DNA from: Escherichia coli
GTDB taxonomy: Bacteria; Pseudomonadota; Gammaproteobacteria; Enterobacterales; Enterobacteriaceae
Assembly (NCBI RefSeq): GCF_003018255.1
Contig: NZ_CP027440.1
Reading direction: 5' to 3' (one strand)
DNA: 64,000 nucleotides
Positions 40,742-41,383 of the stretch are shown here, in pieces. How positions within the stretch are numbered: the first letter of the stretch is position 1; each line of letters starts with the position of its first letter. Under the pieces are notes generated by a model, which saw only the letters and a list, made by a program, of their open reading frames with translations, ran no database searches and had not been told where the DNA came from. The translations under genes were made by a program, and so were the position numbers.

Positions 40742-41383
40742 TTAAGCGGTAATATATTCGAAGTCAGGATTGTTTAGTAGCGCTAAAATATTTTCCAGTA
40801 AACGCGGTGCAATATTATTAGTCGTCGCTTCGGGTTTCCATTGTGATATTTTAGCCATTTCCATTCCGGCATACCCACAAGGATTAATACGTAAAAATGG
40901 TGAAAGATCCATATTGACGTTTAATGCCAGACCGTGGAATGAACAACCGCGTCGAATACGTAAACCCAGTGAGCAAATTTTCTTTTCCCCGACATAGACA
41001 CCAGGCGCGTCAGCCCGAGGATGCGCTTCTATACCCAGTTCAGCCAGGGTATTCACCACTGTTTGCTCAAGCAAGGTCACCAGTTCACGCACACCGAGTT
41101 TACGGCGTTTCAGGTTAAGCAACACATACATCACCTGTTGCCCCGGCCCGTGATAAGTCACCTGCCCACCGCGATCGCTCTGAATCACCGGAATATCACC
41201 CGGCATTAAAATGTGCTCCGCCTTTCCTGCCTGCCCTTGGGTGAATACCGGATAGTGCTCGACCAGCCAGATTTCATCAAGGGTACTATCATCGCGAGTA
41301 TTGGTGAATTCATGCATAGCCTGGGAGATTGGCTCGTAAGGCTGAAGACCGAGCTGGCGGACAAGAATTTTATCCTGATACAA
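40742..41383 (-). CDS. lipB: Octanoyltransferase (lipoyl(octanoyl) transferase)
   Basis: 213-aa product starting at TTG (codes [11 protein letters not shown] after the initiator) with GGAGA SD ~8 nt upstream; track ORF begins at an upstream ATG lacking a comparable SD. Confidence 0.9.

Follow-up and report, generated by a model that had tools for sequence, protein, structure and literature searches.

The lipB locus and its start region

The 64-kb stretch of DNA analysed here (the window) is from E. coli: a 1.1-kb query taken around the lipB start matched 5424 of the 5426 complete E. coli genomes, the nearest being NZ_LR778147 (99.9% identity). The genes of interest are on the minus strand, in the order dacA, ybeD, lipB, a damaged ybeF and lipA, which is the enterobacterial neighbourhood dacA-ybeD-lipB-(ybeF)-lipA. 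The lipB gene of strain K-12 resembles that of the window in its TTG start, in its ribosome-binding region (GGAGATGCCGTT TTG, identical in both), in the length of its product (213 aa) and in its gene order (dacA-ybeD-lipB-ybeF-lipA). The window differs from K-12 by a run of four C instead of five in the lipB leader, by Asn instead of Asp at LipB residue 28, and by a deletion of about 403 bp in ybeF. The positions of the features are given in Table 1.

Table 1. Features of the lipB start region, in window coordinates.
Feature	Position	Strand	Basis or remark
lipB CDS, lipoyl(octanoyl) transferase	40742..41383	-	213 codons + stop from TTG; same limits as the RefSeq CDS
lipB initiation codon TTG	41381..41383	-	sequence, RefSeq, published peptide, codon conservation
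lipB Shine-Dalgarno (SD) GGAGA	41391..41395	-	7 nt 5' of TTG
Internal ATG (Met23), first in-frame ATG	41315..41317	-	sequence
C-run of 4 in the lipB leader	41415..41418	-	K-12 alignment and allele counts
Extended -10-like motif TGnTATACT, TGTGATATACT (hexamer 41427-41422)	41422..41432	-	cross-species alignment
Upstream in-frame GTG, start of the longest ORF, very probably not a real start	41429..41431	-	no SD, rare frame, overlaps the -10-like motif
Conserved hairpin GUUACCCGGCU-CCU-GGUCGGGUAAC, just 3' of the ybeD stop	41447..41471	-	folding and covariation
ybeD (DUF493)	41483..41746	-	stop 99 nt before the lipB TTG

The sequence-only reading had placed the lipB start at this TTG, behind a GGAGA at good spacing. 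The GGAGA is there indeed, and its spacer (tgccgtt) falls within the 5-9 nt that should separate an SD from a UUG start. Its duplex with the 3' end of the 16S rRNA has a predicted energy of -6.6 kcal/mol, versus +0.9 kcal/mol for the best duplex available to the upstream GTG, and the codons that follow (TTG TAT CAG GAT AAA) read (M)YQDK. Taken alone, the bare GGAGA-N7-TTG motif is uninformative, because it occurs at chance level (once in the window versus 1.75 expected from shuffles); its weight comes from its placement at the conserved N-terminus and from its conservation across species. In the mechanism that we propose, the 30S subunit would bind the GGAG, the SD 7 nt upstream would position the ribosome on the UUG, and the initiator tRNA would pair with this codon despite the first-position mismatch, so that the protein would begin with fMet.

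Around the start we also considered other elements. A leader fold that would sequester the SD (UCUCC...GGAGA, 41416-41360) was rejected, its energy of -7.3 kcal/mol corresponding to z = -0.19, with 75 of 200 shuffles doing equally well. An Rfam search around the lipB start returned, at a permissive threshold, nothing but a Trp_leader match on the opposite strand near ybeD, which was discarded as being at chance level (E = 0.84; 18.9 bits versus a gathering score of 41). An out-of-frame ATG (41389-41391, minus strand) overlaps the SD (GGAGATG) and opens a 61-codon ORF (41206-41391); it is not conserved and probably meaningless, because many species read GGAGAC at this place.

Two observations concern the neighbouring genes. 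The ybeF gene, which encodes a LysR-type regulator and lies between lipB and lipA (~39953-39960 / 39950-40482), is apparently a pseudogene here. The ~403 bp that it lacks are present in both K-12 and the nearest genome, at least one further 1-bp gap occurs, the remnants form two out-of-frame ORFs of 126 and 118 aa, and the retained DNA is about 95% identical to K-12, versus about 99% for the flanks. On the other side, dacA is followed by a terminator-like hairpin and then by a sigma-70-like promoter ahead of ybeD (41777-41800 and 41815-41844, minus strand). This promoter (TTGAAA-18-TATACT, 10 of 12 matches) coincides with the region in which a CRP site has been predicted for E. coli ybeD; CRP did not bind to that site (PMC4398509).

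Evidence for initiation at the TTG

We conclude that lipB in this E. coli window is almost certainly translated from the TTG, as a standard 213-residue octanoyltransferase, and that the 229-codon ORF which extends beyond it is an accident of the strain. The RefSeq annotation, a published N-terminal peptide, Ribo-RET data from BL21 and comparative data all agree on the start codon that the sequence-only reading had chosen.

First, the RefSeq start of lipB in NZ_LR778147 (position 1918 of the corresponding sequence, L001) maps to window position 41383, which is exactly the TTG, and the lipB gene of K-12 MG1655 (b0630, NP_415163.2, UniProt P60720; 661637-662278, 213 aa) has a TTG at its start position. 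The comparison with curated LipB N-termini, which had been put forward as a check, thus favours the TTG for both K-12 and NZ_LR778147.

Second, the product scores well above the cut-offs of both the NCBIfam LipB equivalog NF010922 (366.1 bits; cut-off 235) and TIGR00214 (278.9 bits; cut-off 83.55), and is a member of both families. Because positions 2-211 of NF010922 align to residues 18-227 of the GTG-extended ORF, position 1 of the profile corresponds to the TTG codon, in keeping with the earlier statement that the conserved LipB N-terminus aligns there.

Third, Lys135 (in VGEKK-I) and Cys169 (in RINPC-G), which we take to be the catalytic residues of LipB in the E. coli numbering from the TTG-encoded Met, are both found at these positions when the residues are counted from the TTG, and any other first residue would put them out of step with the literature numbering. 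As to structures, the copy of the PDB that was searched contains no E. coli LipB, only the Thermus thermophilus and Mycobacterium tuberculosis homologues, and their alignment to the window LipB begins at residue 6.

Fourth, Table S1 of the TRAINSPOTTER study (NAR 2026; PMC13245402), which lists the N-termini that its authors accepted as indicative of translation initiation, contains the LipB N-terminal peptide MYQDKILVR (row 127; residues 1-9 of P60720, initiator Met first). The same table gives the lipB initiation site as NC_000913:662276-662278, with TTG as the start codon and 'Ribo-RET (BL21)' and 'REPARATION' as support (PMC13245402). Since a Met at a TTG codon can arise from initiation alone, the peptide demonstrates initiation at the TTG. 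These are published data on K-12 and BL21, which we transfer to the window by sequence identity: from the SD through the first lipB codons the window is identical to K-12, and the start region is identical in K-12 and BL21 as well. N-terminal proteomics and initiation-site profiling, the tests that had been suggested for this start, have thereby already yielded a peptide and a Ribo-RET (BL21) signal at the TTG.

The signal is not seen in every dataset. INRI-seq gave no peak at the lipB TTG (K-12 position 662278) in five in-vitro replicates, nor is there one in the K-12 Ribo-RET set of Meydan (PMC9825163, Table S2), so that the ribosome-profiling support is that of the BL21 set alone, as cited by TRAINSPOTTER. 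It is worth noting that many genuine starts are likewise blank in the INRI-seq and K-12 Ribo-RET table (PMC9825163). The missing peaks fit a weakly initiating, poorly expressed lipB and do not point to another start; with BL21 Ribo-RET positive and the two other datasets blank, the TTG can be regarded as real yet weak in signal.

Fifth, the start codon is conserved as a codon. We compared 36 Enterobacteriaceae lipB genes whose products are 73-93% identical to that of the window, and found TTG at codon 1 in 35 of them, GTG in one and ATG in none. The 18 other conserved Leu columns use three to six codons each, with TTG in at most 6 of the 36 genes, and none of the 66 invariant columns for four- or six-fold degenerate amino acids uses a single codon. 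This pattern of codon usage indicates that the lipB TTG is constrained as a nucleotide triplet, in other words as a start and not as a leucine. In the same family, the CGGAGA block is conserved together with the TTG, while the spacer between them varies.

The TTG start, though correct, is neither new nor unusual; it is already present in RefSeq, UniProt and the literature. Other E. coli genes that start with TTG, such as rpsT, similarly have a near-cognate codon read as Met, a normally spaced SD, and both peptide and Ribo-RET evidence, and the TRAINSPOTTER set comprises 10 TTG database starts (PMC13245402). The lipB gene is one member of this small, experimentally supported class of E. coli TTG starts, with no difference in kind.

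In-frame alternatives to the TTG

The longest lipB ORF (40742-41431) has 229 codons, exactly 16 more than the frame beginning at the TTG. The sequence-only reading had correctly described an upstream in-frame start at 41431 that adds 16 codons and lacks an SD, but it took this codon, which is a GTG, for an ATG; the frame stays open for 33 codons ahead of the TTG, and none of them is ATG. We consider it very improbable that lipB starts at this GTG in the present strain, to produce a 229-residue protein with a 16-residue extension, either alone or beside the TTG form. The GTG is in frame, heads the longest ORF and is a legitimate bacterial start codon, yet it owes its frame to a 1-bp homopolymer deletion: the 16-codon extension exists in this strain because one C was lost from the leader C-run. 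With five C, as in the common K-12 allele, the GTG falls outside the lipB frame, which is closed by a TGA 15 codons before the TTG and offers no start codon in between. Among the 5426 complete E. coli genomes, only 9 contain the window allele (searched as an exact 40-mer) and at least 5088 the K-12 allele (41-mer), about 330 matching neither exact query; CFSAN064036, SC418 (NZ_LR778147) and 2012C-4221 are strains with the four-C allele. In none of the nine genomes with the window allele does RefSeq place a CDS over the extension, which also lies outside the LipB profile.

More generally, the leader at 41405-41418 displays a homopolymer length polymorphism within E. coli; strain 40EC (L083), for instance, carries a third length allele, with five C and a following T-run of three instead of four T.

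Beyond E. coli, the extension is not conserved as a protein, and in other genera it is broken by stop codons or frame-breaking indels. A comparison of 38 Enterobacteriaceae sequences shows a variable segment from the -10-like motif to the SD, which differs both in sequence and in length, the latter by steps other than multiples of three. In many genera the TTG has no in-frame start anywhere ahead of it. Together, these comparative data (the rare frame, the frame-breaking indels and the lack of upstream in-frame starts) effectively rule out an upstream start. Furthermore, the GTG overlaps the TG of the conserved extended -10-like motif, and for this reason it is probably upstream of the transcription start of lipB itself. 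The GTG would then belong to the extended -10 of the promoter, and a non-coding leader would extend from the -10 motif to the SD. Transcripts reading through from ybeD into lipB would nonetheless carry the GTG, and might at most give rise to a trace of the 229-residue form in this strain. In practical terms, the longest-ORF track over-extends lipB by 16 codons here owing to a rare 1-bp deletion.

The other in-frame candidate is the Met23 ATG, presumably the start that was originally assigned to lipB in the databases, with a product of 191 aa. Jordan and Cronan reportedly found in 2003 that ATG-initiated LipB is inactive and that TTG-initiated LipB is active. Although no canonical ATG precedes it in the frame, and ATG begins about 83% of E. 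coli genes, initiation of a 191-residue LipB at Met23 has a negligible probability, even lower than that of the GTG start, given that Enterobacterales conserve residues 2-22 at the protein level, that these residues fall inside the LipB profile and (from residue 6) the structure alignments, and that the published peptide begins at the TTG. A rule accepting only ATG would cut 22 conserved residues off LipB.

The ybeD-lipB spacer and a possible limit on LipB output

The spacer between ybeD and lipB carries two conserved elements. Of 37 Enterobacteriaceae, 35 have the extended -10-like motif TGnTATA[AC]T, which precedes the TTG by 30-39 nt, or by 53-54 nt in four Citrobacter; the motif occurs in 0.55% of shuffles. 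Other Enterobacterales have TATAAT or TATACT at the corresponding place in the spacer. This conservation suggests that TGTGATATACT is part of a dedicated lipB promoter located within the spacer, with a predicted transcription start near 41415. A consensus promoter scan between ybeD and lipB returned nothing, because such a scan requires a -35 match. A literature search for the E. coli lipB transcription start site brought nothing new, and as of 2015 it had not been proven that E. coli transcribes ybeD and lipB together (PMC4398509).

Shewanella oneidensis offers a close parallel. Like its E. coli counterpart, the S. oneidensis lipB gene follows ybeD and starts with TTG. The spacer between the two genes holds a promoter for lipB itself, the transcription start lies 20 nt before the TTG according to 5'-RACE, and ybeD is not part of the lipB transcript (PMC4398509). 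The two organisms differ downstream, lipB and lipA forming one CRP-controlled operon in S. oneidensis whereas ybeF stands between them in E. coli (PMC4398509).

The second element of the spacer is the hairpin that follows the ybeD stop (Table 1). Its folding energy is -17.2 kcal/mol (z = -5.2). Enterobacteriaceae conserve the hairpin, and 5 of the 8 consensus pairs have undergone compensatory changes among 30 species. It has no U-tract after it, and its 3' arm lies directly against the -35 region of the predicted promoter. The hairpin might stabilise the ybeD 3' end, act as a partial terminator, or bind a protein at a site that overlaps the -35 region. We regard as mildly new the origin of the long ORF in a rare deletion, the invariance of the TTG in Enterobacteriaceae, and these two elements of the spacer, the -10 motif and the hairpin.

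Why the TTG has been kept is a separate question. UUG is the start codon of about 3% of E. coli genes, and its output in reporters ranges from 10 to 100% of that of AUG. The idea, already present in the sequence-only reading, that a weak start keeps LipB low is plausible and fits both the invariance of the TTG and the absent or weak initiation peaks. A more elaborate proposal is that the TTG has been selected as a throttle on LipB, possibly one sensitive to IF3, and that it makes up, together with the extended -10 promoter and the post-ybeD hairpin, a conserved low-output module. The evidence leans mildly towards it, the TTG having never given way to ATG in the 36 Enterobacteriaceae although all other degenerate codons have turned over; we put it forward tentatively, with somewhat less than even confidence. 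The lipB TTG is a small and clean example of a near-cognate start under constraint at the nucleotide level, which can be used for testing whether weak starts cap the levels of an enzyme needed in tiny amounts.

Outside Enterobacteriaceae, Erwiniaceae and Enterovibrio likewise have TTG at the homologous position. Similarly to E. coli, the Yersiniaceae, Pectobacteriaceae, Hafniaceae, Budviciaceae and Morganellaceae have ybeD upstream, a TATAAT or TATACT in the spacer and the homologous TTG triplet; they differ from it in having an ATG three to four codons upstream of the TTG (MTRL-QQDK...; at about position 1190-1201 in sequences L034, L037-L039, L048, L051, L052, L055, L056, L061, L063, L064, L068, L070, L074, L075 and L081). 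In these five families the start is probably the ATG and the TTG probably an ordinary Leu codon, and neither of the two has a good SD (about +1 to -3 kcal/mol). The use of an SD-less ATG also fits selection for low LipB output, and these families may have reached low-efficiency lipB initiation by a different route.
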